Made by a program: the position numbers and the translations under genes. A stretch of 64,000 bases of DNA, from positions 192,001 to 256,000 of the forward strand of contig CBDBCR010000001.1 in assembly GCA_965203465.1 (NCBI GenBank), given 5' to 3'. Position 1 is the stretch's first letter; each line of letters begins with the position of its first letter. The stretch is from Nitrosopumilaceae archaeon. GTDB taxonomy: Archaea > Thermoproteota > Nitrososphaeria > Nitrososphaerales > Nitrosopumilaceae. Under the pieces are notes generated by a model. It saw only the letters and a program-made list of their open reading frames with translations, was not told the DNA's origin and made no database searches. This document shows positions 7,331 through 33,274 of this stretch, piece after piece.

Positions 7331-7331
7331 C

Positions 7332-16456: not shown

Positions 16457-16912
16457 GTGGACGGGGCGCGCGAGGCCGTTTCGAGGCTGGCCCACCCGGA
16501 CGTGCGCGTGCGCGGCGAGGCGTTCGCCCTGCTCGTGTCGGATCCGGGCGCCTCTGACGTCCTGGAGGGGGCCTGCCGCAGCCCCGACAGGAGCGTGAGG
16601 GCCTTTGCGGCCCTCGCCCTGGGCAACCGGGGCGAGGCGCGCGGTATCCTGCTGGAGATGGCCTCGGACCCCGAGGCGCTGGTGCGCTCGTGCGCCCTCG
16701 GCGCGCTTGCGCACATGGGCATGGACGGGGCGCGCGGAAAGGCGCTGGCCGGCCTGGCCGACGCCAGGATTGAGGTGAGGCGCGCTGCCCTGCAGGCTTG
16801 CGCAAAGCTGGGCGTCGCGGTGCCCGACGCCGAGCTCGAGCGGCTCGAGTCGGAGGGCGACGGGGAGCTGGGCCTGATCGCGCGAATAGTGCGTGGACAC
16901 CGGTTGAAATGA
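16457..16912 (+). CDS. HEAT-repeat protein
   Basis: Repeated D-x-x-VR-x-x-A-x-x-AL helical motifs. Confidence 0.85.
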   Translation: MDGAREAVSRLAHPDVRVRGEAFALLVSDPGASDVLEGACRSPDRSVRAFAALALGNRGEARGILLEMASDPEALVRSCALGALAHMGMDGARGKALAGLADARIEVRRAALQACAKLGVAVPDAELERLESEGDGELGLIARIVRGHRLK

Positions 16913-19107
16913 CCCGTGCGGCGAGGCCGTCCGGCACGCCCGCGCTCCGCATCGCGGCTTTTTCGGACTTTAGGGTCCAAGACATACCAAAGACACTGGA
17001 GCTGGTAAAGAGCCTGAAGCCGGACGTGACGCTTTATGCGGGTGACGACGTGCGCAGGTTCGGCCCCTTGCAGACGGGCACGCTCGAACGGTTGCTCGCA
17101 GAAAACGGACATGCGAGGGCCGGAATCCACGCGTGTGGATCTTTTCCGCGCACGGGACCGTATCGGGACCGCGACGGCACCGCCCACCCGCGCGGGCTTT
17201 ACCAGGCAAGGCTGCCTCGCACCGTGTGCTTTAACGTCAAAGTCGAAGGCAAGGCCTCAGAAAACCTGCTGGAGCAAAAAATCTTGGACATGGCGCGCGA
17301 CCCAAAGATTGGCGAAGAATTCGAGTTTTTGCGCCCGGCCCGAAGCCGCCGCCCTGGCAAAGGCGCGCCGAAAAAAACCAGGATTGTTTTTGAGCAAAAG
17401 AACGGCCGTGCGTACGGAATAGCGCATTTTCCCGAATCCGGCGTGGATTATGCCAAAGAGTTTGCCAAGGCAAGCAGGCTCGGGTTCGGGGGAGTGATAG
17501 GCAACGACGACGATCGCATATACAAATCGCTCCTCAGTGGGGACGGCGCCTGCGATCTGCACGACGGGCCTCTGCTCACGGGAGGCTTGTGCATCGTAGG
17601 GCAGGAAGGCGACGCGCTTTCGGAAAACGGTGGGATGGGACTGACGGTCTACTCGGAGGGCGAAGTAGAAAAGCACTTGGACGATCTGACTTTGGGACGC
17701 AGTCTGGAAAACGTCATACTGGTATCACACACCCCGCCTGCCGGCGTGTTGGATTACGCGCACAGGTTCGGCGACCGGCACGTGGGCTCGTCGGCAGTCC
17801 GTCGATTCGTGGCGGACAGACAGCCGCTGCTAGTGCTCTGCGGGCATGTTCACTCCCACGGCGGATGCGTGTCTAGGGTGGGACGAACAACGGTCGTCAA
17901 CCTTGCGTCGCACGACAGCCCGGGCAGTCCTGGCAGGGTCTGCCTGATCACCGTATCAGGCACAAACGTGGACATGGAATGGTTCTTGGTATCGGCAGAC
18001 GGCGTGGCAGAGTACTCGCACCGCTTTGTAAAAGATGGCGGACGCCTGCATCACGTATTGACGCTGCACAATGTGGGGATAAAAACGGCCGAAAAGATGG
18101 AGGCGGCCGGCGTCCGCACGCTAGAAGATGTCATCTCGGCCGGCGAAGGGGGGCTTGCAAAGCTGCTGAACACGAGCTTGACCTATGCGCGCAAAATGTC
18201 CGCGCAGGCCAAAGCCGTACTGGACGGCAGGACGGTTCCGCAAACCAAACTCGAGATTCCGCAAAAACCACTGATGTTCATCGACATCGAGACGGACTTG
18301 TCGAAATCATACGTGTGGCTGATCTCCGTTTGTGCGGAAGGCAAGAAGGGACTAAAGCAGTTTTACGCCGAGTCTCCGACCCGGGAAAAGGCGATTCTGA
18401 AGGATTTTTTGGAACACCGCAGAAAGCACGGCGGCCACGTGCTCTGTTATTGGTCCGGTGCCGGCTTTGACGAGCGGGTGATCAAATGCCGTCTTAGCCA
18501 GCATCGGCTCGACGCGTCGGGGCTGGGCAGCTGGTTTGATCTGTGTCTGGCGGTAAAGAAAAGCGTGGTCCTGCCCACCGGCTCATTTTCTTTGAAATCG
18601 GTTGCAGCGTGCGTCGGATACAGATACATGCATTCGGATATGGACGGTTTTGCGGCTGCCAAGATGTACCAAGAGACCGTGGGCAGTCGGAAACCGGCGC
18701 TTTCCAAGAAACTGCTCGAATACGGCAAGGACGACATTTTGGTGTTGGACCGCGTGGTGGAAAAAATCGGCGCGATTGCCGGACTGTCTCGGGATTTAGA
18801 GAGCCCGGAAGTACTGCCCGCATCTTTCGAGCAGGAATGCGCCCTCTTGAAGGATCTCCGTAAGCGGGGCATGCGAGTAACCGAGATCGCCGGAAGATTC
18901 GGCAAGGGCCGGGACTATGTCAACACCAGGCTGCGCCAGAATCCTGAAGCAATGAAGGGCAGGCGGGTATTGTTGGAAAGCGGCTTGGTAGGCCGTCGGC
19001 GCGGTTCTGCCGGAATAATTACCGGGCAGATATCTCCAACTGTCTTTGAAGTCAAGTTCGGCAGGAAAACCCTGAACGTGAGCATGAGCTCCATGAAATT
19101 CGCCTAG
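16909..19107 (+). CDS. metallophosphoesterase fused to HhH and an RNase H-like (YprB/TM0106-type) exonuclease domain, plus C-terminal HTH
   Basis: SDFRVQ / AGDD / GNDD / SHTPP / CGHVH; LHNVGIKTAEKMEAAGV; FIDIET...GFDERV...FSLKSVA...YGKDDI. Confidence 0.85.
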   Translation: MTRAARPSGTPALRIAAFSDFRVQDIPKTLELVKSLKPDVTLYAGDDVRRFGPLQTGTLERLLAENGHARAGIHACGSFPRTGPYRDRDGTAHPRGLYQARLPRTVCFNVKVEGKASENLLEQKILDMARDPKIGEEFEFLRPARSRRPGKGAPKKTRIVFEQKNGRAYGIAHFPESGVDYAKEFAKASRLGFGGVIGNDDDRIYKSLLSGDGACDLHDGPLLTGGLCIVGQEGDALSENGGMGLTVYSEGEVEKHLDDLTLGRSLENVILVSHTPPAGVLDYAHRFGDRHVGSSAVRRFVADRQPLLVLCGHVHSHGGCVSRVGRTTVVNLASHDSPGSPGRVCLITVSGTNVDMEWFLVSADGVAEYSHRFVKDGGRLHHVLTLHNVGIKTAEKMEAAGVRTLEDVISAGEGGLAKLLNTSLTYARKMSAQAKAVLDGRTVPQTKLEIPQKPLMFIDIETDLSKSYVWLISVCAEGKKGLKQFYAESPTREKAILKDFLEHRRKHGGHVLCYWSGAGFDERVIKCRLSQHRLDASGLGSWFDLCLAVKKSVVLPTGSFSLKSVAACVGYRYMHSDMDGFAAAKMYQETVGSRKPALSKKLLEYGKDDILVLDRVVEKIGAIAGLSRDLESPEVLPASFEQECALLKDLRKRGMRVTEIAGRFGKGRDYVNTRLRQNPEAMKGRRVLLESGLVGRRRGSAGIITGQISPTVFEVKFGRKTLNVSMSSMKFA

Positions 19108-19227: not shown

Positions 19228-19277
19228 ACTCCGATATATGAGGCGTTATTTAAAAGCATATCGTCAGGGGGGTTTTG

Positions 19278-19334
19278 TTCGGCAATTCCCCGATCCGTGC
19301 CTGAGCGGAGCCGTTTTTTGGCCGATCCGGCCAC
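19278..19334 (+). repeat. dispersed ~56-bp repeat, copy 1
   Basis: TTCGGCAATTC..CGATCCGTGCCTGAGCGG.GCCG...GGCCGATCCGGCCAC; near-identical copy at 53657-53712. Confidence 0.85.
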
Positions 19335-19494
19335 GGCGCAGGCACGAAAATGCGAATTGCCGAACAAAGCCGTCAGGGGTGGTTTACAGTTGGCCAGTAC
19401 AACAGTCCGATCCCGCCTTGAGCACGAACGAGCAGCTTGCCAAACGTTAATACCACCTTTCCTGACACGGCGCACATCAGACCCAGTCTGATTT

Positions 19495-19568
19495 GGGCCG
19501 GTCGTCTAGCCTGGTAGGATAGGTGCATGGCATGCATCGGATCAAGGGTTCAAATCCCTTCCGGTCCA
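19495..19568 (+). tRNA. tRNA-Ala(GGC)
   Basis: Acceptor GGGCCGG/CCGGTCC with G3:U70 alanine identity pair; anticodon loop ATGGCAT; T loop TTCAAAT. Confidence 0.95.
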
Positions 19569-19612
19569 TCTTTCTCTTGTCCCTTTTATCGGATGTTTCC
19601 GGGTGGTAATCG

Positions 19613-20809
19613 ATGAAAATAACGCTGGCCGAGTTCGAAAGGACGGACGGGGCCCCGCCGCTCGAGATGTTCACGCAGGGGATCAAGGCCGAAGAGACGC
19701 GCGAAAAGTACACGCGCACGCTGCGCCGCGTGCTGTGCAACATATTCGAGGAGATACTCGAGGGGACGTTCGAGGAGCGCGCAGCGCAGCTGGTAAGGCA
19801 CGGCAGGGAAAACCCGGACTGGGTGCGCGATCTTTTGCTCAACCTCTCCAAAAAGCTGCGCGCAAGGACAGAGCTTGCGCGCAACGACCCCGACTACTTC
19901 AATCCGTCCTCGATATCCAACTACTTCAAGCCGATCAAAAAGCTGCTGGACATGAACGACGTGAGCATGCCGTGGGCGCGCATCTACGCTACTTTTCCGG
20001 AGCAGGACAACGTGCCCGATTCGCGCGGATGGACGCGCGCCGAGATATCGCGGATGCTCCGGTTCGCCTCGGGCACCACCGACAGGGCGCTGGTGCTGCT
20101 GGCGGCAAGCTCGGGCATACGGATGGGCGGCTTCGACCTGGACTGGGGGGACATGAAGCCGGTGTACCGCGACGGCGACAAGCTCTCGTTCGAGGGGTCG
20201 GGCGAGCCGGCCTGCGCCATGCTTTCCATATACAGGGGGACCAGCTCCCAGTATCCGGCGTTCATCACGCCCGAGGCGTGCCGCGCGCTGGCCGACCACC
20301 GCGCGTCGTGGGCGCGCGAGACGGGCAGGCAGCCAGAGCCGTCCGATCCCATGTTCAAACAATACGGTCCGCTCCCGCGCAGGGCCACGCAGGTGTCCAT
20401 GAAAAAGAGGATACAGCGCATGATGTCAAAGGCCGACCTGCGCTCCCCAGAGCTCAAGAACCACCGCAGGTTCAAAGTCCCCATGATGAACGGGTTCCGC
20501 CGGTTCTGGAACAAGGCGTGCAAGGAATCCATGTCCCCGGATTCGCCGCTGGCCTCGCTGGTCAAGACCGAGTTCATGATGGGCCACAAGGGCCTGATCA
20601 GCCTGGACAAGAACTACTTCCAGGTGAGCCCCCTGGAGCTGGCAGCCGAGTACCTGCACGCCGTGCCCAACCTGACCATAGGCGACGAGGAGCGGCTGGC
20701 GGCCGAATCCGAGCGCAGGGCCGAGCGGATAGCCGAGCTGGAGAAGGACAAGGACGAGATCAAAGAGCTGCGCGCCCTGGTCGAGCAGCTCTCGCGCCGG
20801 ATAAAATAG
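19613..20809 (+). CDS. tyrosine recombinase/integrase
   Basis: RALVLLAASSGIR (catalytic R), NGFRRF (HxxR-like), EFMMGH...DKNYF (H, Y); C-terminal coiled coil. Confidence 0.88.
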   Translation: MKITLAEFERTDGAPPLEMFTQGIKAEETREKYTRTLRRVLCNIFEEILEGTFEERAAQLVRHGRENPDWVRDLLLNLSKKLRARTELARNDPDYFNPSSISNYFKPIKKLLDMNDVSMPWARIYATFPEQDNVPDSRGWTRAEISRMLRFASGTTDRALVLLAASSGIRMGGFDLDWGDMKPVYRDGDKLSFEGSGEPACAMLSIYRGTSSQYPAFITPEACRALADHRASWARETGRQPEPSDPMFKQYGPLPRRATQVSMKKRIQRMMSKADLRSPELKNHRRFKVPMMNGFRRFWNKACKESMSPDSPLASLVKTEFMMGHKGLISLDKNYFQVSPLELAAEYLHAVPNLTIGDEERLAAESERRAERIAELEKDKDEIKELRALVEQLSRRIK

Positions 20810-20841
20810 CGGCCTTTTATGCAGGCCGCCGCACCGGCCGC

Positions 20842-20964
20842 GTGAAAGACTGCCCTTCCTGCTCGGAGCCGTTCACATACCATTCCAACAAGCGGCTGGT
20901 CGCGTGCGCGCGGCGCTTCCTAAAGTCGGCACCCTCGGGTTCCCGGCGCGGCGGCCCGGACTAG
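20842..20964 (+). CDS. small putative Zn-binding peptide (CxxC-x6-H-x7-C)
   Basis: GTG start: KDCPSCSEPFTYHSNKRLVACARRF; TTTTAT box at ~20815. Confidence 0.45.
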   Translation: MKDCPSCSEPFTYHSNKRLVACARRFLKSAPSGSRRGGPD

Positions 20965-21001
20965 GCCCCCCGCCTTTTTCCCGCCCGGCTCTGCCTCCCG
21001 G

Positions 21002-21049
21002 GATGTGCCGCTTAACGGGGCGCAAAGGTGCCCCGTTAAGGGCCACATC
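21002..21049. other. long inverted repeat / hairpin
   Basis: CTTAACGGGGCGC-AAAG-GTGCCCCGTTAAG, extended by GATGTG/CACATC. Confidence 0.8.
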
Positions 21050-21109
21050 GCGGGCAAAACCTGACCCTTTTTTCGCCCAGCAGACCTTGCCGGCCGCGCG
21101 CGGCACCCC

Positions 21110-21736
21110 TTCGGGCGGCGCCGGGCTGTAGGAGGGCCTATACCCTTCATGGCGGCAGCTAGGCTGTCGGGTAGCATATACCCTTAAGCTGGGACGCTGG
21201 CGTCCCGAGTAAAGGGCACATCGCCCCAGTCGCGGGCGCCTAGTGCGCCCGGCGGATCTCCCCGCCGCGCACGATCTTTTTCGGGCGGCGCCGGGCTGTA
21301 GGAGGGCCTATACCCTTCATGGCGGCAGCTAGGCTGTCGGGTAGCATATACCCTTAAGCTGGGACGCTGGCGTCCCGAGTAAAGGGCACATCGCCCCAGT
21401 CGCGGGCGCCTAGTGCGCCCGGCGGATCTCCCCGCCGCGCACGATCTTTTTCGGGCGGCGCCGGGCTGTAGGAGGGCCTATACCCTTCATGGCGGCAGCT
21501 AGGCTGTCGGGTAGCATATACCCTTAAGCTGGGACGCTGGCGTCCCGAGTAAAGGGCACATCGCCCCAGTCGCGGGCGCCTAGTGCGCCCGGCGGATCTC
21601 CCCGCCGCGCACGATCTTTTTCGGGCGGCGCCGGGCTGTAGGAGGGCCTATACCCTTCATGGCGGCAGCTAGGCTGTCGGGTAGCATATACCCTTAAGCT
21701 GGGACGCTGGCGTCCCGAGTAAAGGGCACATCGCCC
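21110..21736. repeat. perfect 170-bp tandem repeat, about 3.7 copies, non-coding and hairpin-rich
   Basis: TCGGGCGGCG recurs at 21111, 21281, 21451 and 21621; units identical; the last copy ends at ...ACATCGCCC (21736). Confidence 0.97.
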
Positions 21737-22042
21737 GGGCCCCCCCCGCCCGTCCGGCAGCAGCCGCCCGGCCGGAAAACCCATCTAATCCCGGGCTTTG
21801 AATGACAAAAGCGCCGAGGCGCGCGGCCCCGGCCGCCAAGGCGCCTAGAATTTTCTTGCCGCCGTCAAGGGGCAGGCATCCGATCCGGCGCTGCGCGCTC
21901 TCATGCCCGGTACTCGGAATCCCCGGAACCGAGAACTTCCGAGTTTATATAACGAGCCCGCCGCGCCGCGTTCGTGATCCTCGCCGCGCCGTTCGTGGTT
22001 GCAGAACGTTGCCGGCCGATGCCGCGGCGCGGGTGAAGTCAG

Positions 22043-22507
22043 ATGGAATTCAAAATTCCGTTCACGAGTTCGTCTCTAGTCTTCGGCCCTCAGAAGGTGT
22101 TGACGGAATGCCAAAAATGCGGCGTTCCGACGCGCCACAAATGCGTCAAGGTGGTCGGCAACCTGTCCAAATGGAGGTGCGAATCGTGCAGCACGGTCTA
22201 CGTGTCTCTCACTGCCAAATGCTCTGAATGCCCCAACGAGAAACTGAGCCTGCTGGAGGATCGCGACACGTGGATCAAGTTTGAATGCGGAATGTGCTCG
22301 TCGGTCACGTACTTTTACATTTTTGATTGCAGTTTGTGCAGAAAATCTACTTTGCATGAGGGCATTGGCCCGATATGGAAGTGCGTCAACTGCAACACGC
22401 AGTCCGAGATGCAAGGTAAGCATTTGGCTGAAATTATTCAGGACATTGGTAATAGAATCCAATCAGACACCGTGCAAGATGCATTAGACGCAAAGTACCA
22501 AAACTGA
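22043..22507 (+). CDS. multi-zinc-ribbon protein
   Basis: Six CxxC motifs (CQKC, CESC, CSEC, CGMC, CSLC, CVNC); lower GC than the host genes. Confidence 0.75.
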   Translation: MEFKIPFTSSSLVFGPQKVLTECQKCGVPTRHKCVKVVGNLSKWRCESCSTVYVSLTAKCSECPNEKLSLLEDRDTWIKFECGMCSSVTYFYIFDCSLCRKSTLHEGIGPIWKCVNCNTQSEMQGKHLAEIIQDIGNRIQSDTVQDALDAKYQN

Positions 22508-22577
22508 CTCTGCCGGTACGGCGGCATAGGCGGGAACGTATGCTCTGCCCCTTAAATCCTGCCCGCCCACCGCCCTC

Positions 22578-23399
22578 GTGAAGGTCGGACTGGATCTCGG
22601 AACGGGGTTCGTAAAGTGCGTCTCGGACGTGGGCTCGGTCAGGTTCCCCACCCTGTACGCCAGGCGCGTGGGCGGGTGCTGGTCCACGAAGGCGTCCGAG
22701 GCGGTCGGCTCCGGCGCCCTGGCCCTGCTGGGAACCGCGGGGACCGCGGCGGTCGGGCCCATATCGAAGGGCAGGCCGGATCCGCGCCACCAAAAACAGG
22801 TCGAGATGCTCGTGCGCGAGGCGCTGGCCCAGATCCGGTGCCTGGCCAAGGCGCCGGCGCCCGGCAACGAGAAACTGAGCATGGTGGTGGGTTTGCCCTA
22901 CCACGCGTTCGACCAGCGCGAGTTCGTCGCAAAGCTGGTAAAGCGCACGCTCGACGCGGACTCGTGCAGCGTGGTCGCCCAGGCGTGCGGCACGCTGGTG
23001 GACCTTGACATGGACACGGGCGTGGTGGTATCGATAGGGCAGGGCACCACCGAGATAGTGGTCGTCGACGGATCGGAGGTAATCGACGGCGCAAGCTCGG
23101 CCTGGGCCTCGGACTTCGTTACCAAAAAGGTGGGCAGGTTCGCCCACTTGGACCCGTCCGCGCTGGAGGCGCACAAGGACGTCTGCAAAAAGTACGCGCG
23201 CGTCTTGGCGGAGAACCTGGCCGCCGAGATCCGGGACGTGGCCGGCCAGTACGGGTACCCCCTGGCGCTCTCGGGCGGCGGGCTGCTGATGCCGGGCGTG
23301 CGCGACGAGCTGGAGGCCCGCCTCGAGGGCCGCAAGATCGTGGTGCCGTCCGACCCCGTGATGAGCAACGCGCGCGGGCTGTACAAGCTGGCGGCCTGA
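22578..23399 (+). CDS. actin-like ATPase, ParM/StbA/MreB superfamily
   Basis: Phosphate-1 GLDLGTGFVK, VVGLP, phosphate-2 SIGQGTTE, adenosine LSGGG, NARG. Confidence 0.88.
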   Translation: MKVGLDLGTGFVKCVSDVGSVRFPTLYARRVGGCWSTKASEAVGSGALALLGTAGTAAVGPISKGRPDPRHQKQVEMLVREALAQIRCLAKAPAPGNEKLSMVVGLPYHAFDQREFVAKLVKRTLDADSCSVVAQACGTLVDLDMDTGVVVSIGQGTTEIVVVDGSEVIDGASSAWASDFVTKKVGRFAHLDPSALEAHKDVCKKYARVLAENLAAEIRDVAGQYGYPLALSGGGLLMPGVRDELEARLEGRKIVVPSDPVMSNARGLYKLAA

Positions 23400-23607
23400 G
23401 GCCGGATTTTTCAGCAGGACAGCAACCCCTTCGTCTTTGGCAACTATGGCATGCTCCCAAGATCGGATCCGCAACCGCCGGATCTGAACAGCGCAGATCC
23501 GGCAGAACGGCCCAAACGCGCATCCGTTCGGCTACAGACGATCTCGTTGCCGAAAGGCTGCCCGACTATTCGGCCGGCCCCTTTTATGCGGCCCGGCACC
23601 GGCAGCC

Positions 23608-26165
23608 GTGGGCGGAAAATGGCGGCTGGCCAACGGGCGCAAGCCAAAAGGGGTATTGGACGGGGCCAAAAAGTTCCTGCCCGGGCCCGCCGACGTAGCG
23701 GCCTGCTCTGTGTCGGTCCCCGTGGAGACGGACAAGAAAGAGGCGGTCGAGGCGGCCGGCGGGCTGGCCTGCCCGGGCGTGAGAAGCTACGAGGTGTGGT
23801 GGGACGGCGCCGAAAAGCAGCTTCGGATGGTGCTGGCGTGCGAGAGGGCCGACATGGCGGGGTACAGGCAGGCGTTCCGCAACATGTACCCCACCGCGGC
23901 GTTTTCCGACGCGGAAACCGCGCCTTCCTGGTTCGACCCGGCCGGAAAATACCGCATGTTCGACGTGGGCGCCTACCACGGCCACTACGCGACCGTCTTC
24001 GACAAGGCGCGCGCCCACCAGATAATGTCGCAGATAGCCAGCACCGTCCAGCTTTCAAGCAAGGCCTGGATACAGTTCGTCTTCAAGTCGTACTCGTTCA
24101 ACCCCTTCCTGAGGAGGCACGTGGCCAGGCTGGACGGCAAGGTCCGCGAGATACGCCGGGGCAACTACCTCTCCAATACGGAAATACTGATGCACCCCGA
24201 CAAAAAGCCGCACGACCACCCGGAGGCGGGCAGGGACTTCGACAACAACTACGCCGGCCTGCAAAAGCACGCCACCCTCAAGATGCAGGGCTCCCACGTG
24301 CTGATGGCCGTGCGCGGGCTGATGGTCAGCGACGACGAGATCGACCTCAATTTCGACGAGATCGAGGCCCTGCCCGTCGAGAGCGTGCGCTCGGGCCACG
24401 AGCACCTGACCAAGTTCCGGTACCTCGACGCGGAGAGGTGGAGGCACGGATCCCAAAAATCGGAGATACGGGCGGGCGGGCAGAAACTGAGCCGCCTGGA
24501 GATGTTCCCGCGCCGCCTGCTGCCCGACCCCGAGCAGCATTTGGAAAAGGTGCTGTCCGGGTATTGCGGGCGCGGCCTGTTCGGCTACAAAGACAGGCGG
24601 CCCCTGCCCTTTTTGATGCTGACCCTCTCGGAGATGCCGCTGTTCGTGCATTTGCCGTCCCCGTCCACGCCCAACATAGACACCACCCGCGGCGTGGCCA
24701 TGCCGACAAAGCCGTCCGAAAAGGAGGGCGGGCCGCTCGGCTCGTTCGTTCCCGGCGCCGGCGCCCCCGAGTGGGGCCTGACCGTCAGGTCCAAGGACGC
24801 CGAGGCGGCCGTGGTGTCTCCCTCGGACTTTGCCACCCACCTGTACGCCGTCGGCGGCTCGGGCTCGGGCAAGACTTCCCTGATCCGGCTGCTCGCCAAG
24901 CACCTCGAGGCGTGGAACGACTCGGGGCAGTTTCCCAACGCGTTCATTTACGTAGACCCGAAAGGGGACGACTCCCGCAAGTTCGTCCAGCAGTGTTTGC
25001 CGGGATCTTTGGAGGAGGGCAGAGTCCACTACTTGGATCCGCAGGAGACGCGCTTTTCGATAAACCCGCTCGAGCTGCCGCCCCACAAGGAATCGGAGCG
25101 CGAGGAGGTGGTCTCGCGGTACGTCGGGTACTTCATGAAGACGATAGAAGAGTGGTACCAGCAGTCTGCCAGCTACGTGCAGATGGAGAGGATCTTCCGG
25201 GCCCTGCTCTTCTACATGTACATGAAGCACGACGCCCCGACCTTCCTGGACATGCACGGTATCATATTGAGGCTGCAGGGGGGCAAGGACGCGCTGGCCG
25301 ACGTCATCCGCGAGTACGGCGAGCCGGACCCCGAGATGGCCCAGGCCCTCGAGAGCATATCTTCCCTCAAGGGGGACGCTTTCGTGCCCCTCCTGAACCG
25401 CGTGGAGCAGTTCGCCACAGACCCGGTCCTCAAGAGGATGTTCTCTGTCAGGCGCGGGACCGTAGATTTCGACGAGCTAGTAAAGCCCGGCTCCTGCACG
25501 GTGGTCCGCATATCGCCCCTAAACATGCCCCAGCACGTCCAGCCGCTGGCCATGCAGGCGTTCATCCTGAAGCTGTGGTTTACAATACAGGAGCGGGCCG
25601 CCGGACACCGGAGCGCGACCGCACCCAGGTGGTCCTGGCCCTGGACGAGTTCCAGATAGTAAAGGACCTGCAGGTTCTGCAGCTCATGCTCGAGCAGGCC
25701 CGCTCGCTGGGCCTCGGGCTCGTACTGTCACACCAGACCACCGAGCAGATCAGCGACAGGCAGCTTGGCATAATCACCGGCAACTCTGGCACCCAGTTCG
25801 TGGGGCGCGTCAACGGCAGGGACGCGGCCCGGATATCGCAGATCTGGGACCCCCAGTTCCAAAAGCCGCTCCAGCACCAGCTTGCCAGCCAGGAATATTT
25901 CCACTGGACGGTGAGGGAAAAGGCGCCGCCCGGCAAGGAGCAGCCGCCGCCTTCACAGTTCTGGCTGAGCCCCCCTCCCGGGCTGGTCTCGGCGGGCATG
26001 TTCGAGCAGTTCGTCTCGTCACAGCTTGCAAAGTACGGAAGCGGCGTGGTAGAGGGGGCGGCCCGCGCCGCCGGCCCCGTCCAGTGGAAGGCGTCGCTGG
26101 ACGTGGACGTGCCGCCACGTAGGACTACGCCATTTACGAGGCTAGATTCCATCCGCGTTACTTAA
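23608..26165 (+). CDS. VirD4/VirB4/HerA-like conjugative-type ATPase (1-nt frameshift near 25600)
   Basis: THLYAVGGSGSGKT (Walker A), IYVDPKGD, INPLE; after the shift VVLALDEFQ (Walker B) and EQARSLGLGLVLSHQT. Confidence 0.85.
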
Positions 26166-26245
26166 ATGAGCCCAAACTTGGTCAGGATCGTGTTCTGTAA
26201 AGCATTCGTGCAAACGGCGCGCGGCATACTGGACGGTGGGCTATT

Positions 26246-26908
26246 TTGAAATCGTCTGACACACCGTACCTGAAATGTGGGAAGTGTGACTGGAGACGGC
26301 ACAGGTTGGACGGTATGACATTCCGGTGTGGGTGCGGTGCTGCCAACTACGAGGTGCGCGAGATCCATGCGTCAAAATCGATGCGGGGGCCAGACGCTTT
26401 TCTATTCATCGAGCGTAATATCGAGGGCGCGTCCCCTTGCCGCGAGTGTGGTGTAGTTATGAAGCAGATACTGTACGCGGGCAGGGTGGTGGGTACCGTT
26501 GGTTGCTCCAGCCATGATTCTATAGACACCATGGTGCGCGAATACGCCCTTGCCCGATACAACATGCTCAACGCCGAACACTATCGCATAGAGCGCGAGA
26601 GAACGGACGCGGAGCAAAGGTTGGCCGGCCCCGTATGGCTCAAGTACAATAACGTCTGGCACATAAAGGCCCCTGGTGGTAGAACTGGCGACGAGGTAAC
26701 CGTGGTGAAAAGTGACGGCACGAAGTCCGACCAAGTGCTCGGCACGCCAGTAGCCGACGATATTTTTGTGCCTGCAGTGCCCAAGGGCCGCAAACGAGGC
26801 AAGTGTGAAGAGTGCGGTATGGACGGACATGAACGCGGAAAAGGAAGAGTATTGTGCAATGCCTGCGTGGCCCGCAATCGGTCAAGGTACGCCAGACGAA
26901 GGTCTTAG
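26246..26908 (+). CDS. hypothetical Cys-rich (zinc-finger) protein in low-GC DNA
   Basis: CGKC, CGCG, CREC, CEEC, CNAC motifs; GDEVTVVKSDG segment. Confidence 0.6.
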   Translation: MKSSDTPYLKCGKCDWRRHRLDGMTFRCGCGAANYEVREIHASKSMRGPDAFLFIERNIEGASPCRECGVVMKQILYAGRVVGTVGCSSHDSIDTMVREYALARYNMLNAEHYRIERERTDAEQRLAGPVWLKYNNVWHIKAPGGRTGDEVTVVKSDGTKSDQVLGTPVADDIFVPAVPKGRKRGKCEECGMDGHERGKGRVLCNACVARNRSRYARRRS

Positions 26909-27127
26909 ACATGCTAGTGGAGGGGTTCATAGCGTCTGACTATTGGGCGCTCGGATTCTACAGCTTTGTACATGAACATGCTTACATGAAAGCTGTAGAT
27001 CGCGCCGGGTGCCTGCAAACTCGCGCCCCTTCGACTCGGGTAAGAGTTTGACGCCGCAGAATCCCGGTTCTGCTGGAGTCAACAATAAATGCCGGAACGC
27101 CCAAAAGGGACACTGTGGGTTCATTTT

Positions 27128-28623
27128 CAGTAGAAGTCATGCGTAATCCCCCGGAGTCCGGCTCCGGTGGGCGCGCAACGCCGCTACATATGTATCAATA
27201 TTGATAATATTGCGCGGAAAGCCGTAGATTCACAAAGACACGTGCGGCGACAACCTTGAGAGAGTTTCTGCCCTCCTGCCGCTCTTCGCGGCCGCAGTTA
27301 GCGGCTGCGCGCCGTCTTGGGCCCCGGCTTTTTGCCCTTGCGGTGGGTGCGCGGCTCCCTGTTCCCGCTGGTCATGATGGCCAGGTTGACCACGCCAATG
27401 ATCACGTCCAGCCCCCTCCTGAACTTTCCCTCGATTTTGCGCCCCCGGTTGCGCACCCACGCGAACGTCTCCACCTTGCGGAACGTGTTCTCTATCTGGA
27501 CGCGCTTGGTGTTCACGCGGTGGTTGTGCGCCCTTGCCTTCTTGGTGCCGCTTTGGGCGCGCGGCAGCGGCATCATTATCTTGGATCCGGGGTGGTGCTT
27601 GTCCAGGCCCCGGAAGCCCTTGTCGACGAACTCGATTATCTGCATGGCGGCGCTTTCCCCCTTCATGCACCGGGTTATCAGGCCCAAGTCCGGCTCCGAT
27701 TCGCGCAGGAGTGTCAGGTCGTGGGTGCTGCCCGGCGCCAAGTCGCTGTGGCCCAGCAGCGCCCCCTTGGCATTGGAGATCGCGTCGCTTTTGCGCGTGG
27801 TGTCTTTTTTCTTGCCCGAATAGCACGCGTCCCTCTCGTCCTTGTCGGTCGGGCGCTGCACGCGCAGTTCCACGCCGTCGGTGATCGCGATGTTGCCAGG
27901 CAGCGTCGGGCCCGGGTCGCCCGCGGAGCCCAGCTTGAAGCCGGCGATTTTTTCCAGCCGGCGCAGCAGCTTGTTGAACACTCTCTGGATCTGATCCTCC
28001 GTCCTGGCGTTCTGCAGCTCCTCGGATATCCTGTCCGCGGTGGGCAGCAGATTGGACATCCACTGCTCTATGTATTCAAAGTACCTGCTGATGGCGGTCT
28101 GGCTGATCTTGTAGACCGAGGCCACGTAGTCCTGCGACATGCCGTGCCGCTTGTGCTCAAAGTACAGGAACAGCATGTGCCTGGGGGCCACGGAGCACCG
28201 CCTCCCGGCCGAGCTCTCCGCCCCCTTCTTTCCCCAGTACAGCGGCGAATTCAGATCCGCGTCCATGCTGTTGAGCAGGGCGGCAGAGACCAGGCGGAAG
28301 TTGTCCTCGGGCAGCCCCGTCCTGATCTGCAGCACCCCGCCTTCGTCTATGTAAGAGTCGACCATTATGAGGCTGGCCGTCCTGGTGACGTCGAGTTCGG
28401 AAAGGCCAGACGCCTCGGCCAGGAACTTGGCCGCACCCCCAGGCGTCTCCGGCGTCGGAATCGTCCTCGCCTTGGCCCTTACCATGGCCGCGAGGGCCCG
28501 GATCGCCGGATCTTAAGGTTTCGATCAGAATTCTTTAGACAAGAAGTCTAGAAAAGTTGATTCGCTGCGCGTTGCCCGCCGCGCAAAACTCAGACTCCGG
28601 GGGATTACGCATGACTTCTACTG
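27128..28623 (-). mobile_element. IS5-family insertion sequence (DDE_Tnp_4 type)
   Basis: Perfect 31-bp inverted repeats CAGTAGAAGTCATGCGTAATCCCCCGGAGTC at 27128-27158 and 28593-28623 flanking one transposase ORF. Confidence 0.93.
27298..28485 (-). CDS. DDE transposase (IS5/ISL2-like)
   Basis: TDGVELRVQRP...YSGKKK, PGSTHDLT, VDKGFRG, HNHRVNTKRVQIENTF; HTH before the catalytic domain. Confidence 0.92.
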   Translation of the reverse strand: MVRAKARTIPTPETPGGAAKFLAEASGLSELDVTRTASLIMVDSYIDEGGVLQIRTGLPEDNFRLVSAALLNSMDADLNSPLYWGKKGAESSAGRRCSVAPRHMLFLYFEHKRHGMSQDYVASVYKISQTAISRYFEYIEQWMSNLLPTADRISEELQNARTEDQIQRVFNKLLRRLEKIAGFKLGSAGDPGPTLPGNIAITDGVELRVQRPTDKDERDACYSGKKKDTTRKSDAISNAKGALLGHSDLAPGSTHDLTLLRESEPDLGLITRCMKGESAAMQIIEFVDKGFRGLDKHHPGSKIMMPLPRAQSGTKKARAHNHRVNTKRVQIENTFRKVETFAWVRNRGRKIEGKFRRGLDVIIGVVNLAIMTSGNREPRTHRKGKKPGPKTARSR

Positions 28624-28870
28624 CTAAATTCGTGCCATGCGGCTGAATTCTTGGCGTTTGGCTGTTGTCGTCGATTGCTTTTGCAGGATTTGCCAATCTC
28701 AACACATACGGCCTAGGCCGGTGGACTCGGCGGCTGTGTAGGCACCCGCACGCCCAGAGGCTCCTTTCGTCGCTGTAGATGGCAGAGTCCAAGCTGGGCG
28801 ACTACCAGACCATCCGCAGCGGCTTCCGCTCCAGGCAGCGCCGCGCCTGCCGGCACGGGCTCTAGGCACA

Positions 28871-30961
28871 ATGCCGGGCGCGCAGGCGGGGCCGTACAAA
28901 ACCTCGGAATACGTTATATCGCGGCGCGCCCCGGCCGACTCGTTGAAGGCATTGGCCGCGTGCGCGGCGGTATCCGCGCTGCTGGCACTCTCGCAGTCCG
29001 GCGCCCAGCTGGCCTCGCCGCTGGCGCAGGAAGAGGCGGGCGCGGCGCCGGCCGACGTGCTCTGCAACGAGGGCCTGGTGCTGGTCATGCGCGCCTCTGG
29101 CGCCGCGTGCCTGCGGCCTGCCACCGCCGACCGGCTGGGCTTGGAGATACTCCAGCGTTCCGAACGATACGGCCACGCGGACGCCCCTGTAGTATCCGAC
29201 GGCGCGCTCGCAGACCTGGCCGGTCAGCCCGAGAAGGGTTCCGTCCAAGTCAGGGCGCACTCCTTGGTGCCGGCGCCCGATTTCAAGCCGGCCCTGCAGC
29301 ATCCCGACACCGGCGAGCGGCTCGAGTGCGTCTGGGAACAGTGCTACGCCGTCTCGCCCTCGTCGGAGACCTACGCGGGCCTGCACGGGGCGCAGTGCTC
29401 CAGGCACGGCAAGTGCTTCGTGGTCTCGGACGTGCCCCCGCCAACAGAGCGCGAGCCGCTGGTGTTTTTCTCGTCTTTCAGGGGGGAGCCTATCCGCACC
29501 ACGATAATGGTGGATCCGGACCGCACCGGCTACTGGTCCACCGCAACAAAGGCCGAACTCGACGAGCTGCTGCCCAGGCTCGCCGGATCGTTGTACCAGA
29601 GTCTCATCGCGCACACTATTGCTGATTTGGGGCCTGCTGTCCGCGCCCCTGACGGGACGCGGATCTGGGCGGCGATAGGCGCCGGTTTTGAAAACGCCCG
29701 CTGGCAGGATCAGTGGCAGACGGTGGCGGGCGACGATTTTGACTTTACCTCCGAAAGATACGATTATCTCTGGTCTTCGAACAAGGGCTGGTTCACGGCG
29801 CACAACGGGCTTGACGGCGGCAAGATCGAGCACCAGAGCTACACTCCGGTGCCCGGCTCGCCTACCGGCCTGGAATTTGCCGCCGAATTCATGGATACGA
29901 TGGGCTTTGACGACTGGTCTGTATACGTGGGGAAAGTATGGGGCTCGGGGCTGATCCACGGGACCGTACTGGATCAGACCACCGACCTCAAGGAAAACTA
30001 CAAAGCGACCGGGCCGACGGTTCAGCAAGTGACCTCGTTTATACAGGATGCGCGGGGCGACCCGGAACTGGATCCGGAAAAAATGACGAACAGCGTGTGG
30101 CACATAAGAAACAACTACGGCACGTACCGCGACGCCATCTTCGATCGCTTTGAGCCGGATCATATTCCGTTGACAGCGTACAACGAAGGGGCGGGGTGGA
30201 TATCGGTTGGCCCCGTCCCCGACGGGATGGCGGGCACTTTCGAGGGGTGGTCCGACTATCCTATACCCAAACCCGCCGTATCGCGGACGGAGGCAATAGA
30301 GCGGGCGCTGGAATTCGCCGCGGCCGACCCGGTGCTGTCCGGCCCCGAGTGCGGCCTGTCCGTTCAGGACAGGTCGGCCGAGGACCGGCCGCGGTACGTC
30401 TATCTGGACCAAGTGGCCGGCGCGCCGTTCTGGGTCGTGGACATGGGGGCCTGCGAGGTACTTCGCGATCTGTGCCACGACGACATTGTGTTTTCACAAG
30501 ATCTTTTGAGCATGGAAGAAGAGAATGCTGTAATAGAAGAAGCAAAGGCAAGGGGCCAATGGAACCTCAATCTGGTCTATGATCCCGAACGGTGGAACAC
30601 ATGGGGAGCCGATTCGGATCAATGCCGCATTATCTTGGAGAAAGCCACCGGCCTCAAGATAAACGCCTTTGGCAGGATCAATTCATCGGCCATGGACAAG
30701 GCGCCCTACATGCCGTACCACCAACACGTATTCAACCGCATCCACGAGATCAACGTGGACGTGTTCGTCGACGCGCTAGACGGCCAGACCGCCTGGTTCC
30801 GGGAGAACGAGGAATGGGACTCGGACATCAGGTGGAGAAACAGCTTCTTTGAGGACAAGAACGTGTGGTTTTTGGAGGACGGCAAAGTCACGTTTGCCTC
30901 AAAATGGCCCAAAGGGTATATCTACGAGACGGTGTGGCTGACCGACGAGACGGTTCGATGA
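28871..30961 (+). CDS. large secreted/surface hypothetical protein
   Basis: Signal-like hydrophobic N-terminus followed by the thaumarchaeal module DVLCNEGLVLVMRASGAACLRPATADRLG. Confidence 0.75.
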   Translation: MPGAQAGPYKTSEYVISRRAPADSLKALAACAAVSALLALSQSGAQLASPLAQEEAGAAPADVLCNEGLVLVMRASGAACLRPATADRLGLEILQRSERYGHADAPVVSDGALADLAGQPEKGSVQVRAHSLVPAPDFKPALQHPDTGERLECVWEQCYAVSPSSETYAGLHGAQCSRHGKCFVVSDVPPPTEREPLVFFSSFRGEPIRTTIMVDPDRTGYWSTATKAELDELLPRLAGSLYQSLIAHTIADLGPAVRAPDGTRIWAAIGAGFENARWQDQWQTVAGDDFDFTSERYDYLWSSNKGWFTAHNGLDGGKIEHQSYTPVPGSPTGLEFAAEFMDTMGFDDWSVYVGKVWGSGLIHGTVLDQTTDLKENYKATGPTVQQVTSFIQDARGDPELDPEKMTNSVWHIRNNYGTYRDAIFDRFEPDHIPLTAYNEGAGWISVGPVPDGMAGTFEGWSDYPIPKPAVSRTEAIERALEFAAADPVLSGPECGLSVQDRSAEDRPRYVYLDQVAGAPFWVVDMGACEVLRDLCHDDIVFSQDLLSMEEENAVIEEAKARGQWNLNLVYDPERWNTWGADSDQCRIILEKATGLKINAFGRINSSAMDKAPYMPYHQHVFNRIHEINVDVFVDALDGQTAWFRENEEWDSDIRWRNSFFEDKNVWFLEDGKVTFASKWPKGYIYETVWLTDETVR

Positions 30962-31212
30962 TGACACATACCGAAACACGCGCGACGCGCCGCAGATGGC
31001 CCCTGCCCGCGCTCTTGGTTTGTGCGCTGGCGGTGGCAAACCGCCTTCTCAAGGACGGACTCGGCCTCAAGTGAGGCCCTGCGCCCGCAGGCGAGCGTGA
31101 GCGAGAATGGCGGCAGCGCGCAGTCCGCCGGCCCGGCCTTTTGCCGCGCCCGACGCCGGGGTCCGCGCCAGGCACAGCCAAGTTTAAGTTCGGCAGAGGC
31201 GGGGCGGCGTTC

Positions 31213-32127
31213 GTGGTCCCGCCGTTTGAGGAATTCATGCTGCCGCTGCTAAAGGAGGTATCGGACGGCAGGGAATACACTTTGGCCAACACAGTACGGC
31301 CAGTCTCGGACAGCATGGGCCTGTCGGAGGACGACCGCAACAAAGTCATGCCGAGCAAAAGAAACAAAAGCACTACCTACGCGCAAAACAGGCTGCACTG
31401 GGCAAAGACGTACCTCAAATTTGCAGGCCTGCTGGAGATACCGAGCAGGGGGAAGTTCAGGATCACGCAACAAGGCCGGGACGTTCTTGACGAACGCCCT
31501 TCCCGGATAGACATAAAGTACCTGCTCCGGTTCGAATCGTTTGCAGAATGGAAGTCCAAGAGCCGAGGCGAGGGCACGGACAGTGCCGACGCACCCAGCA
31601 CCAGTAGCGCGACCCCCGAGGAGGCCATACAACGCGGCGTTGCAGAATACAGCGAATCGCTGCATGCGGACTTGCTGGAGGAAGTGTTGAAGGTTTCGCC
31701 GCACGGCTTCGAGGAGTTGGCGCTGGACTTGTTGGAACGGATGTACGGCGGCAAGGCGGAGCCGACGCAGCGCAGCAGGGACGGCGGGTTCGACGGCATC
31801 GTGTACGAGGACGAGCTGGGCTTGGCCAAGATCTACGTACAATGCAAGCGATACGACAGCGGCAACTTCGTGCGGGCCAAAGACATCGACGCCTTCATAG
31901 GCGTGCTTGACGCCAGCTCCAAAAAGGGCATCTTCATAACCACGTCCAAATTCACGCCGGACGCAGAAGCTCGCCTCAAAAACCGAAACGACGTGTCGGT
32001 GGTTTTGATAAACGGCTTGCGTCTGGCAGAACTCATGGAAAAGCACGGCGTGGGCGTTTCCGAAAAAGACTCTATAACCATAAACAAGATCGACCAAGAC
32101 TATTTCGAGCAGTACAAGGACGACTGA
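31213..32127 (+). CDS. mrr: Mrr-family type IV restriction endonuclease
   Basis: N-terminal FMLPLL...NRLHWAKTYLKFAGLL (Mrr_N); catalytic DGGFDG...YVQCKRY...KGIFITTSKFT. Confidence 0.93.
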   Translation: MVPPFEEFMLPLLKEVSDGREYTLANTVRPVSDSMGLSEDDRNKVMPSKRNKSTTYAQNRLHWAKTYLKFAGLLEIPSRGKFRITQQGRDVLDERPSRIDIKYLLRFESFAEWKSKSRGEGTDSADAPSTSSATPEEAIQRGVAEYSESLHADLLEEVLKVSPHGFEELALDLLERMYGGKAEPTQRSRDGGFDGIVYEDELGLAKIYVQCKRYDSGNFVRAKDIDAFIGVLDASSKKGIFITTSKFTPDAEARLKNRNDVSVVLINGLRLAELMEKHGVGVSEKDSITINKIDQDYFEQYKDD

Positions 32128-32320
32128 GCCCGCGCCGCCCACCGGCCCATCTGCCGGCGGCCCGGAAACCGGAGCGGCCGACCGGGCGAGTGGCGCCCTA
32201 GTTCGCTAGGCACCCTGCACGGCAGGCGCCCGGGGAATTCTACGGCCTGCGCGTCAACTGCACCCGCGCCCGCCAGCCGGCGCGGCCGGCTATAAGGCCG
32301 GCAAGAGGCGCCGCCGTGGC

Positions 32321-33274
32321 ATGTTCATATACCCCGCCGTCCCTAAGACGCCGGTGGAGCAGCTCAACCGCACGTGCACGGGCAAGTGCAAAAAGTACCG
32401 GGTCAAAAAGCCGTCTGTGGGCAGCAGGTACGGTGCCGGCCACGCCCGGTGCCAGATCTGCGACGTCTGGATAGACCACCGGGGCGGGCACCTCAAGGAC
32501 GGCTCGCCGGCTAGCGCGGACTCGTCGGGCTGGTTCTGCAACTGCTGCAACTACAAGGTGCGCCGCAGCCCGCGCAACATCGAGTACAAGGCCAAGATAC
32601 GCACCGCCGTGCAGGGCTCGGGGCCGGCCCGCCGCGGCCGCGTCGACCTCGAATACTTTAACAAGCGGCGCGCGCGCATGCTGCGCGGCATCGGCGAGGC
32701 GCTGGCCCTCTCGCGCATATCCGAGGGCGCCCCGGAGGACATGCTGCCGGCCGGCATGACCTCCGAGGAGATCGCCGCCGAGTTCGAGACGAGCATGGAC
32801 GAGCTGATCGCGCTCGCAAAGTCCGACTCCCCCAACAAGGCATCGCTGATAGCCGAGCTGGAAAGGTGCCGTTACAAGATACGCCTGGTCCCGACAAAGG
32901 AGGAGATGGCCGCCGACTCCAAGTTCACCATGGAGCAGTACGAGGCAGAGTTCCAGTCTTGGGAGCACCTGCTAGACAGGCTCGACTACGACCCGTGGTA
33001 CCGCGACCGAATGAGCACGGCCGTGCCCATGTGCGGCATGGTGGACGAGCTGCGCCCCGACGAATCCGGGGCGGAGAGGACCGGCAGGCTCGTCTCCGAG
33101 GCGCTCGGCATTCTCCGGGAGGGCAGCCTGCGCTCGTCGGAGCTGCGCGACCGGCTGGGCATAACCGGCTACGAGATGGCCCACCTGGAGCTGGCGCTCG
33201 CCCGGGCAAAGGGCGTCTCGTGCAAAAAGACGCGCCGCAGCGGCTCGACCGAGACGGTCTTTTCGTGCGGGTAG
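32321..33274 (+). CDS. Cys-rich Zn domain plus homing-endonuclease-associated repeat-like domain
   Basis: TCTGKC...RCQICD...CNCCNYKVRRSPR; LIAELERCRYKIRLVPTKEEM...YEAEFQSWEHLL. Confidence 0.7.
   Translation: MFIYPAVPKTPVEQLNRTCTGKCKKYRVKKPSVGSRYGAGHARCQICDVWIDHRGGHLKDGSPASADSSGWFCNCCNYKVRRSPRNIEYKAKIRTAVQGSGPARRGRVDLEYFNKRRARMLRGIGEALALSRISEGAPEDMLPAGMTSEEIAAEFETSMDELIALAKSDSPNKASLIAELERCRYKIRLVPTKEEMAADSKFTMEQYEAEFQSWEHLLDRLDYDPWYRDRMSTAVPMCGMVDELRPDESGAERTGRLVSEALGILREGSLRSSELRDRLGITGYEMAHLELALARAKGVSCKKTRRSGSTETVFSCG

Follow-up and report, generated by a model that had tools for sequence, protein, structure and literature searches.

In a Nitrosopumilaceae archaeon, genes for an integrase, an actin-like protein and a conjugation-type ATPase lie in one same-strand run directly downstream of a tRNA-Ala(GGC) gene, and the locus raises the question of whether these genes constitute a mobile element and, if so, to which kind it belongs. 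The window analyzed here is the whole 64,000-nucleotide (nt) stretch G000:C1:192001-256000 of contig CBDBCR010000001.1, and positions given without a contig refer to it. The source genome (G000; 2.26 Mb on 4 contigs, 65% G+C) encodes archaeal AmoA (E value of 1.9e-115), and therefore the host is an ammonia-oxidising archaeon, as had been supposed in the original prediction, which was made from the DNA letters alone. We conclude, with a probability of roughly 0.6, that positions 19571-27126 constitute a 7.6-kb integrative element in the 3′ part of tRNA-Ala(GGC) and that this element is a compact derivative of the lineage of thaumarchaeal integrative and conjugative elements (ICEs). It is one of five related copies in the genome and part of a wider, undescribed actin-bearing group in the host family, it remains a member of the established class of thaumarchaeal integrated elements, and it is probably non-autonomous. 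This reading is carried by the gene content and its conservation, by a multi-copy and patchy distribution, by sites at tRNA genes and gene ends (with short repeats in two paralogs), by back-joined contigs and by two folds. The five copies, the defined ends, the VirB4-type domain and the family-wide presence of the actin on mobile elements go beyond what had been predicted.

Ends of the unit and its five copies

All genes of the unit lie on the + strand. The tRNA-Ala(GGC) gene at 19494-19570 (ARAGORN; Rfam tRNA, 50.1 bits) is the integration target, and an open reading frame (ORF) for a 398-amino-acid (aa) integrase of putative divergent tyrosine-recombinase type (19613-20809) starts 42 nt past it. 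A Cys peptide, a hairpin, a 170-bp array, a Zn-ribbon protein and the actin-like protein follow in the order originally described, after which come the ATPase and a 220-aa multi-CxxC protein (zn220; 26246-26908), the final gene before the inferred right end. Contigs assembled from two public sequencing runs delimit this unit. In run X10, a contig leads from position 27126 through 13 letters resembling the tRNA-Ala 3′ end to 19571 (depth of 26.3), and in run X3, from a different study, a contig leads from 27121 through 5 tRNA-3′-like letters to 19556 (depth of 40.4). These back-joints therefore bound the unit at approximately 7.6 kb, and they are as expected of either a circular form or two units in tandem. 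Three further joints (19675->32627, 23763->32621 and 31102->33450), each with one side of 22, probably reflect repeats or other organisms and were disregarded. The T-loop of tRNA-Ala(GGC), GGGTTCAAAT (19546-19555), is almost repeated at the inferred right end, GGGTTCATTT (27117-27126, + strand), where the contigs of the two runs rejoin 19571/19556. GGGTTCAWWT, common to both ends, has three matches in the window against 0.21 expected, at 19546, at 27117 and at an unrelated site on the − strand, 47162. The tRNA-Ala site, this shared end motif and the back-joints collectively support the proposal of an integrative element at a tRNA gene.

The window integrase shares 30% protein identity with the integrases of the four paralogous copies (E value of 1e-41) and 55% with one in the related genome G226. 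The paralog integrases gave sub-threshold matches to Phage_integrase (0.0042; 17.3 versus 27.1 bits), archaeal XerA (2.5e-4) and phrog_1 (2.7e-4). In the integrase alignment, R170, K264, R296 and H325 are invariant, and a Tyr follows approximately 10 residues past H325. Judged by its residues, the window integrase is a candidate divergent tyrosine recombinase.

The actin-like protein has five matches in G000, with 100, 97, 95, 61 and 60% identity, and each copy shows the same order of integrase, repeat-bearing spacer, actin and ATPase. Besides the window copy (W), the paralogous copies, named C1b, C3a, C3b and C3c, are found at C1:670.9-676.0 kb, C3:331.7-337.7 kb, C3:924.0-930.9 kb and C3:982.1-988.1 kb. 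The DNA similarity between W and the others extends from precisely the integrase stop (20804-20810) as far as 26113-26121. These limits define a conserved core of Cys peptide, hairpin, repeat region, actin and ATPase, around which the integrases and right-hand parts have been exchanged. The four paralog integrases are approximately 84% identical to each other at the DNA level. In copy C3c, the shared sequence starts in the last 11 nt of tRNA-Lys(CTT), and TAGACCCGCCC recurs 15.76 kb downstream; in copy C1b, it starts at the stop of a 3833-aa gene, and TAGCCCGGCTT recurs 17.2 kb downstream. A lone 11-mer is weak evidence, with approximately 0.3 matches in each junction window roughly estimated to arise by chance; the evidential weight lies in the exact junction position in two diverged copies together with the CTTA that precedes both right-hand repeats. 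The main text of Krupovic et al. (2019; PMC6563490) gives a median of 17 bp and a minimum of 8 bp for the attachment (att) sites of thaumarchaeal elements, with which the short sites of C3c and C1b agree. The att sites of C3a and C3b were not found.

Within the core, the 40-aa Cys peptide (20842-20964, + strand; CPSC...C) is retained as an ORF in all five copies of the genome, and a pattern search in 24 loci of relatives did not find it. The hairpin at 20997-21054 on the + strand is terminator-like, with 25-nt arms and a following T run (−49.5 kcal/mol, z of −5.7, 0 of 200 shuffles as good), and is conserved in C1b and C3c. The 170-bp tandem array (21110-21736, unstranded) consists of 3.7 units with 100% matches, each with two TATACCCTT boxes and a palindrome. 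About one array unit is present in the other copies and strains, and run X10 holds an allele with a shorter array (joint 21050->21629). The segment 21737-22547, together with the 154-aa Zn-ribbon ORF (22043-22507, + strand; six CxxC pairs, read from its translation), is unique to W and missing from the paralogs, and X10 also contains a contig form without the 154-aa gene (joint 21592->22548). At the far end of the unit, zn220 had no family match in Pfam, PHROGs and NCBIfam, the databases used for all protein family scans.

The cargo of the paralogs is defence-like and includes UvrD plus PD-(D/E)XK, ParB_N plus PRTase-CE, and DNA methylases. In C1b (L009:12769-14668; G000 C1:681769-683668), a ParB_N protein (5.7e-18) is directly followed by PRTase-CE (3.8e-34) and an N6/N4 DNA methylase, an arrangement that looks like a defence-type gene pair. 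Approximately 4 kb downstream of the C3c ATPase (L007:3400-7588; G000 C3:977400-981588), the DNA is rich in tandem repeats (228 bp x2.5, 15 bp x9.9, 55 bp x2.3 and 23 bp x3) and devoid of convincing ORFs; four of the copies share conserved parts of it.

The VirB4-like ATPase and the actin-like protein

The ATPase (23608-26165, + strand) had been described as a P-loop protein of approximately 850 aa. The protein is present, but it is not a single ORF in the window: frame 1 extends over 23608-25659, and the conserved C-terminal part lies in frame 3 at 25602-26165, so the gene is read as 23608-25599 followed by 25602-26165, with a +1 frame change needed at 25600. One extra A is found there in all four paralogs, whose ATPases are intact (1033-1067 aa). 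W in turn carries an A at 25583 that is specific to it. The window ATPase lacks the last ~190 aa of the paralogs and, to judge from its sequence, may be crippled or dead. In three of four runs, the sole contigs over 25600 have the extra A (X1, 24.7/24.7; X3, 88.8/88.8; X10, 45.6/45.6), possibly derived from paralogs.

The frameshift and the ~190 missing C-terminal residues would suit a decayed remnant of a full-size ICE at tRNA-Ala, reduced to inert debris by the loss of its channel, pilus and replication genes. An insertion sequence (IS) at the edge of the element and the occurrence of the same ATPase inside larger TFIIB/prepilin-peptidase clusters of relatives would fit as well. Besides the ATPase, the scans found no transfer gene within 19571-27126; the unit holds one ATPase in place of a VirB4 plus VirD4 pair, and its other ORFs match none of VirB6, TadC, pilin, prepilin peptidase or TFIIB. 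However, the compact layout occurs five times in G000, four times with an intact ATPase, and two paralogs retain flanking direct repeats. The right-hand part of the window copy (approximately 26090-27128, 3′ of the breakpoint at 26113 and through zn220) is back-joined as a unit in other samples, and the same architecture is not expected to arise repeatedly by independent decay. Four paralogs with intact genes therefore identify the compact layout itself as a propagating form, and we consider the remnant explanation unlikely. Of the original suggestion of a minimal or decayed ICE, the absence of the rest of the transfer apparatus stands and the word decayed suits the window ATPase, but a layout with four intact paralogs is one that propagates.

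The family assignments of the ATPase point in two directions. A Walker A motif (GxxGSGKT) near residue 430 is followed by a TrwB/TraG-like core, which on an intact paralog matched TrwB_AAD_bind (PF10412) with 23.8 bits, over the cut-off of 20.5, and TraG-D_C as well. The VirD4-like CD1115 family matched residues 412-737 (5.8e-6). The ATPases of relatives carry PF10412, PF12696 and PF02534 and are annotated as type IV secretion DNA-binding or TraM-recognition proteins. The nucleotide-binding domain thus has the TrwB/TraG trait of VirD4/TraG coupling proteins, whereas residues 1-350 are predicted to form an alpha/beta VirB4-like domain and not the N-terminal membrane anchor of the VirD4 type. 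These N-terminal residues are conserved in the alignment, and their fold was predicted with a predicted local distance difference test score (pLDDT) of ~83. Among 48,161 chains, the best structural match of the domain was TrwK/VirB4 (7o42_A, residues 36-423; Z of 12.3, root mean square deviation [rmsd] of 3.5, 239 residues aligned), and the runner-up reached a Z of 7.2; Foldseek found the same TrwK/VirB4 protein with E values of 1.7e-4 to 1e-3. The N-terminal domain, which had been called unknown, therefore folds like that of VirB4/TrwK, and the whole architecture is VirB4-like. This narrows the earlier description of a VirD4/VirB4/HerA-like ATPase to its VirB4 part, as the protein is neither HerA-like nor a plain VirD4.

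The resemblance to VirB4/TrwK, and to archaeal TrbE/CedB-type ATPases, extends to the order of an N-terminal alpha/beta domain before a RecA-like P-loop domain and, in relatives, to a link with type-IV-secretion-like genes. The differences are a length of ~1040 aa, of which ~200 aa form an additional C-terminal region, sequence profiles that indicate VirD4/TraG/TraD, a two-gene form in some relatives, and the lack of an adjoining VirB3/VirB6 partner here. Against TIGR00929 (VirB4_CagE), the ATPase scored 14.3 bits, below the curated cut-off of 643 bits. Taken together, the data support its membership in the ATPases of conjugation (type IV secretion), which are a mark of thaumarchaeal ICEs. Searches of Protein Data Bank (PDB) sequences with the ATPase, its N-domain profile and the integrase profile gave nothing useful, and the ESM Atlas placed the N-domain with DUF8128 clusters at 0.92-0.93, a lead that Pfam did not confirm. 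The VirB4 type of this domain also applies to the thaumarchaeal ATPases labelled TraG-like.

In several relatives, separate genes specify the N-domain (~390-430 aa) and the ATPase proper (~650 aa). This form was seen in G226 (L045 and L046), on contigs C59 and C114 of G305, and in P0183 and P0202, among others, and partial contigs suggest it for G355 (C20/C44) and G343 (C95/C126). The 650-aa form clusters up to 19 sequences and therefore has the appearance of a naturally split variant, not of a broken gene.

The actin-like ORF (22578-23399, + strand) encodes a 273-aa protein with intact nucleotide-binding motifs. It matched ALP_N (1.7e-5) and MreB_Mbl (2.2e-5) slightly below the Pfam cut-offs, its best sequence-family match was phrog_691, partition protein (2.1e-13), and its matches to ParM models were weak (NF010498, 0.0022), as were those in a PDB sequence search (EutJ, 0.006). 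In an alignment of 31 sequences, the phosphate-1 (GLDxGTGFVK), phosphate-2 (SIGQGTTE) and adenosine (SGGG) motifs are all invariant, with D6, G8, T9, G154, G156, T157 and S232-G235 as the invariant residues. The AlphaFold model (pLDDT of 93.2) matches MamK (Z of 27.2, rmsd of 2.7, 261 residues aligned), MreB (Z of ~26) and actin (Z of ~25) over 250-261 residues, and the protein is thus predicted to have the actin fold with all three motifs in place. Homolog records are named hypothetical, ParM/StbA family or rod shape-determining, and nearly all come from Nitrosopumilus, Nitrosotalea, Nitrosopumilaceae or Thaumarchaeota, with one labelled Candidatus Micrarchaeota. The protein is most likely a partition motor. 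It shares with the ParMRC, AlfA and Alp7A systems an actin-fold ATPase with intact motifs on a mobile element and repeats just upstream of the gene. AlfA is of similarly small size. In four of eight loci of a distant actin subfamily, a small ORF overlaps or abuts the actin stop, as in those systems: in three (L067, L071 and L072) it encodes 94-105 aa and overlaps the stop, and in the fourth (L068) a 93-aa ORF ends right at it. Unlike ParMRC and AlfA, the locus has no ParR/AlfB-like adaptor recognised by Pfam and lies in an archaeal host, and its actin-like protein comes closest to the solved folds of MamK, MreB and actin. A complex prediction for the actin with ATPase residues 1-360 scored 0.00 in a run without controls and counts neither way.

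The family matches of the two proteins also bear on a possible provirus or other element of viral descent, with structural genes diverged beyond recognition, in which the ATPase would package the genome and the actin would position it. The actin matches a phage partition protein family, the ATPase matches two PHROG families of unknown function (1e-14 and 6.1e-13), and several ORFs of the unit have no family match in Pfam and NCBIfam. Nevertheless, no capsid, portal or terminase family was matched in Pfam, PHROGs and NCBIfam, the ATPase N-domain resembles VirB4 and not a packaging ATPase, the ATPase of relatives lies beside prepilin-peptidase and TFIIB genes as in ICEs, and a 7.6-kb unit with three large nonstructural genes leaves little space for a virion module. 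A viral origin is therefore highly improbable in our view. The same scans gave zero matches for relaxase, capsid and Rep families, in agreement with the original prediction that such genes are absent.

Occurrence in relatives and mode of spread

The survey covered 401 genomes of the class, 223 of them in the host family and 177 in other families. The ATPase was found in 69 of the 401, namely in 45 of the 223 genomes of the host family and in some of 6 other families. The actin was found in 42 of the 401 (41/223 in the host family and 0/177 in other families), a tally that also counts the unpublished genomes G326 and G132. Several genomes hold 2-6 copies, some with stops. Both genes are therefore patchy, multi-copy and located at differing sites, and do not behave as syntenic core genes unlinked to an integrase, the distribution that would have spoken against the original prediction.

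Among 18 close actin homologs of relatives (full length, at least 55% identity), 15 are followed by the ATPase on the same strand at a distance of at most 2.3 kb (two loci each in G226, G066 and G357, four in G305, and one each in G214, G249, G352, G304 and G355:C20). In G355:C44 the ATPase is 5.8 kb away, and the two remaining homologs, in G302 and in the fragmented assembly G343:C8, lack it. The spacing between the linked genes ranges from a few nt to 2.3 kb. G066 and G357 show the order tRNA-Asp, Phage_integrase protein (7e-17), 300-aa protein, actin and ATPase. At eight loci with distant actin homologs (seven of them 36-40% identical by BLAST and G302 with 55%, also counted among the 18), none has the ATPase within 8 kb. 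Four of these distant actins follow a TFIIB operon, two lie behind a tRNA gene (tRNA-Ser and tRNA-Asp) with an integrase in between, for another an integrase gene is found two genes upstream, and one comes after an uncharacterised 481-aa ORF with a tRNA call overlapping it. These contexts make the actin a hallmark of integrated elements in the family and the ATPase pairing a feature of one subfamily. The predicted co-occurrence of the pair thus held for all five copies here and for the close homologs, and it is not obligatory. The locus with the 481-aa ORF (L072; G296:C12:1716-18513) is syntenic with the tRNA-Lys flank of G000, with 72% flank protein identity; its element differs from that of G000, and integration at this site seems to be a recurrent event common to both genomes, as at a hot spot.

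The (actin and) ATPase is preceded, at 10-11 of 24 loci of relatives and paralogs, by an operon for a TFIIB Zn-ribbon protein (0.0032), a prepilin peptidase (Peptidase_A24, 3.3e-5) and two proteins of unknown function. The proteins of the TFIIB operons had no adaptor or ParB match in Pfam. According to the main text of Krupovic et al. (2019; PMC6563490), the thaumarchaeal ICE gene set comprises the components of this operon, with TFIIB before a ParB-like gene and no relaxase. The ATPase of relatives, often with the actin, thus lies in larger TFIIB/prepilin-peptidase clusters that equal the published ICE set, and the compact unit is therefore best regarded as a derivative of that lineage. As described in the same text, thaumarchaeal ICEs and cryptic integrated elements integrate by a tyrosine recombinase at tRNA 3′ parts and gene ends with very short att sites, encode VirB4/VirD4-type ATPases without a relaxase, carry defence-type cargo and hold the TFIIB-like and prepilin-peptidase genes seen here in relatives' clusters. 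They differ from the unit, which has a single conjugation ATPase and lacks channel, pilin and TFIIB genes, in size (median of 64 kb against 7.6-17 kb) and in having ParB-like partition genes in place of an actin-like gene. The words actin and ParM do not occur in that main text. Neither the literature searched nor the texts of PMC6563490 and PMC10746226 describe an actin-like gene for thaumarchaeal mobile elements, although the supplements of PMC6563490 may list such genes.

The close adjacency of the two genes across three integrase/operon contexts, in 15/18 close homologs and 5/5 copies, could instead mean that actin and VirB4-like ATPase form a self-sufficient two-protein machine for DNA transfer or segregation that makes the elements autonomous, in the manner of TraB, the lone transfer ATPase of actinomycete integrative elements. 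Small size (7.6-17 kb), tRNA targeting and repeat arrays recall actinomycete integrative and conjugative elements (AICEs) and fit this proposal, as does the absence of a relaxase from the ICEs described in the main text of PMC6563490. However, distant actins occur without the ATPase (0/8 loci), the ATPase occurs without the actin in 11 of 24 loci (Nitrosopumilus-like), VirB4-type N-domains dock on membrane partners in known systems, and no membrane-spanning partner was found in the unit. A self-sufficient machine is decidedly improbable on this evidence.

For the compact derivative of the ICE lineage that we favour, the following course of events is proposed. The integrase would excise and insert the unit, and actin-like filaments would partition the excised circle in a type II (ParM-like) manner. 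The role of centromere or operator may fall to the repeat region, and the filament may be linked to DNA by a small Zn protein or another adaptor. A single VirB4-like ATPase presumably cannot build a channel by itself, and the elements would therefore either be mobilised from elsewhere or no longer be transferred. Transfer, if any, would proceed via an apparatus supplied in trans, possibly from the TFIIB/prepilin-peptidase cluster at C1:526-533 kb of G000, as for bacterial mobilisable elements. The genome has one such operon (C1:526,416-532,972), which is not beside any ATPase copy. Bacterial integrative mobilisable elements and AICEs are small and tRNA-targeting and carry an integrase and one DNA-transfer ATPase without a full apparatus. 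Unlike them, the unit has no relaxase or origin of transfer (oriT) that was recognised, its ATPase is of the VirB4 type and not FtsK/TraB, and its host is an archaeon. It is also conceivable, if rather improbable, that the actin filament positions the excised circle at, or pushes it to, the VirB4-like ATPase, so that the two would act as a minimal archaeal DNA-transfer or handover machine. Were this true, elements of 7-17 kb could spread between ammonia-oxidising archaea without pilus or channel genes of their own, which would explain five copies in a 2.26-Mb genome.

Several observations weigh against an integrative element with actin-based partition. The joints were read from assembled contigs, not from reads; rare forms and artefacts are not separable in them, and a tandem pair of elements would yield the same joint. 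No att repeat longer than 7-10 nt that bounds the window copy was clearly found, and blast-short and exact-repeat searches of the tRNA region against up to 40 kb downstream gave nothing of at least 9 nt at the junction. The right end lacks the tRNA 3′ remainder expected under simple integration; this remainder, CCCKTCCRGTCCA, had 8 matches against 8.7 expected when up to 2 mismatches were allowed. The window integrase had no family match in the three databases and has Asn for the first His of the HxxR box (N-G-F-R versus H-G-F-R in the paralogs), and an assembly error may underlie the frameshift at 25600. With regard to partition, ParM and AlfA are not among the best 50 structural matches listed for the actin, whose neighbours are MamK, MreB and actin. 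Pfam recognised no centromere-binding adaptor among the small ORFs beside actin genes, and the TATACCCTT boxes are present in only two of the five copies, W and C1b. Some relatives carry a putative ParB-type operon together with the actin, and partition may therefore already be covered there. Finally, the chromosome is rearranged at the element sites relative to same-genus genomes, which precludes a clean empty-site comparison with them.

To our knowledge, neither plasmids nor conjugation events nor genetic tools are known from ammonia-oxidising archaea. The element family is multi-copy and polymorphic between samples, which makes it a candidate for the study of gene flow and for vector building in these organisms. 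It also adds to the few archaeal actins a family borne on mobile elements, restricted to the host family among the genomes searched.

Neighbouring DNA and chromosome context

An IS5-like element and Mrr lie downstream, as had been predicted. The IS (27128-28623, − strand) encodes a DDE transposase (DDE_Tnp_4, 1.1e-16) between perfect 31-nt inverted repeats and adjoins the right end of the unit. It is followed by a 696-aa ORF (28871-30961), the putative secreted protein of the original prediction, for which a WING-49 domain (1.3e-8) was the sole family match, and by Mrr (31141-32127; Mrr_cat, 1.2e-28; Mrr_N, 9.5e-25). These three had been regarded as cargo of the element. Since the back-joined contigs place the right end near 27126, they probably lie outside it. 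An IS-free allele with the joint 27128->28620 is present in runs X3 (0 other letters) and X10; the X3 contigs are otherwise identical to the window, and the insertion is therefore recent. A copy with 99.5% identity is located at C3:21176-22667, and diverged copies are found at C1:908950 and C1:941044. The 696-aa protein, with its N-terminal WING-49 domain, has a 78% identical paralog at C3:953398-955458, in a region that also contains two element copies.

In G000, the chromosome is rearranged at the sites where the element copies lie. In three same-genus genomes, tRNA-Ala(GGC) adjoins orthologs of G000 C1:393,597-386,433, 182 kb away. In the same three genomes, tRNA-Lys(CTT) is located 4-11 kb upstream of orthologs of window 4556-6737 and tRNA-Val(TAC); in G000, the tRNA-Lys flank (C3:988167-992262) and window 4556-7332 are on different contigs. 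The right flank of C3c had no DNA match in relatives, and its tRNA-Lys side is conserved. This pattern suggests rearrangements at element-bearing tRNA sites, and recombination between element copies is a plausible cause.

To the left of tRNA-Ala(GGC), a palindromic unit of ~100 bp (19271-19371) has 36-nt arms that are 81% complementary. It has approximately 18 more matches of 75-107 bp with 79-99% identity on contigs C1-C3, one of them at window ~53657, and resembles a miniature inverted-repeat transposable element (MITE) or a repetitive extragenic palindromic (REP)-like repeat; run X3 has 69 other letters in its place. Further upstream, 16798-19107 encodes a 769-aa RecB-like nuclease of the TM0106 family (5.5e-21). 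This gene is not conserved in three same-genus genomes, and the left side of the tRNA may therefore also be variable DNA. On the other side, past Mrr, a 317-aa Zn-ribbon protein (32321-33274) has a 45% identical paralog at C1:545475-546107, 13 kb downstream of the TFIIB/prepilin-peptidase operon.

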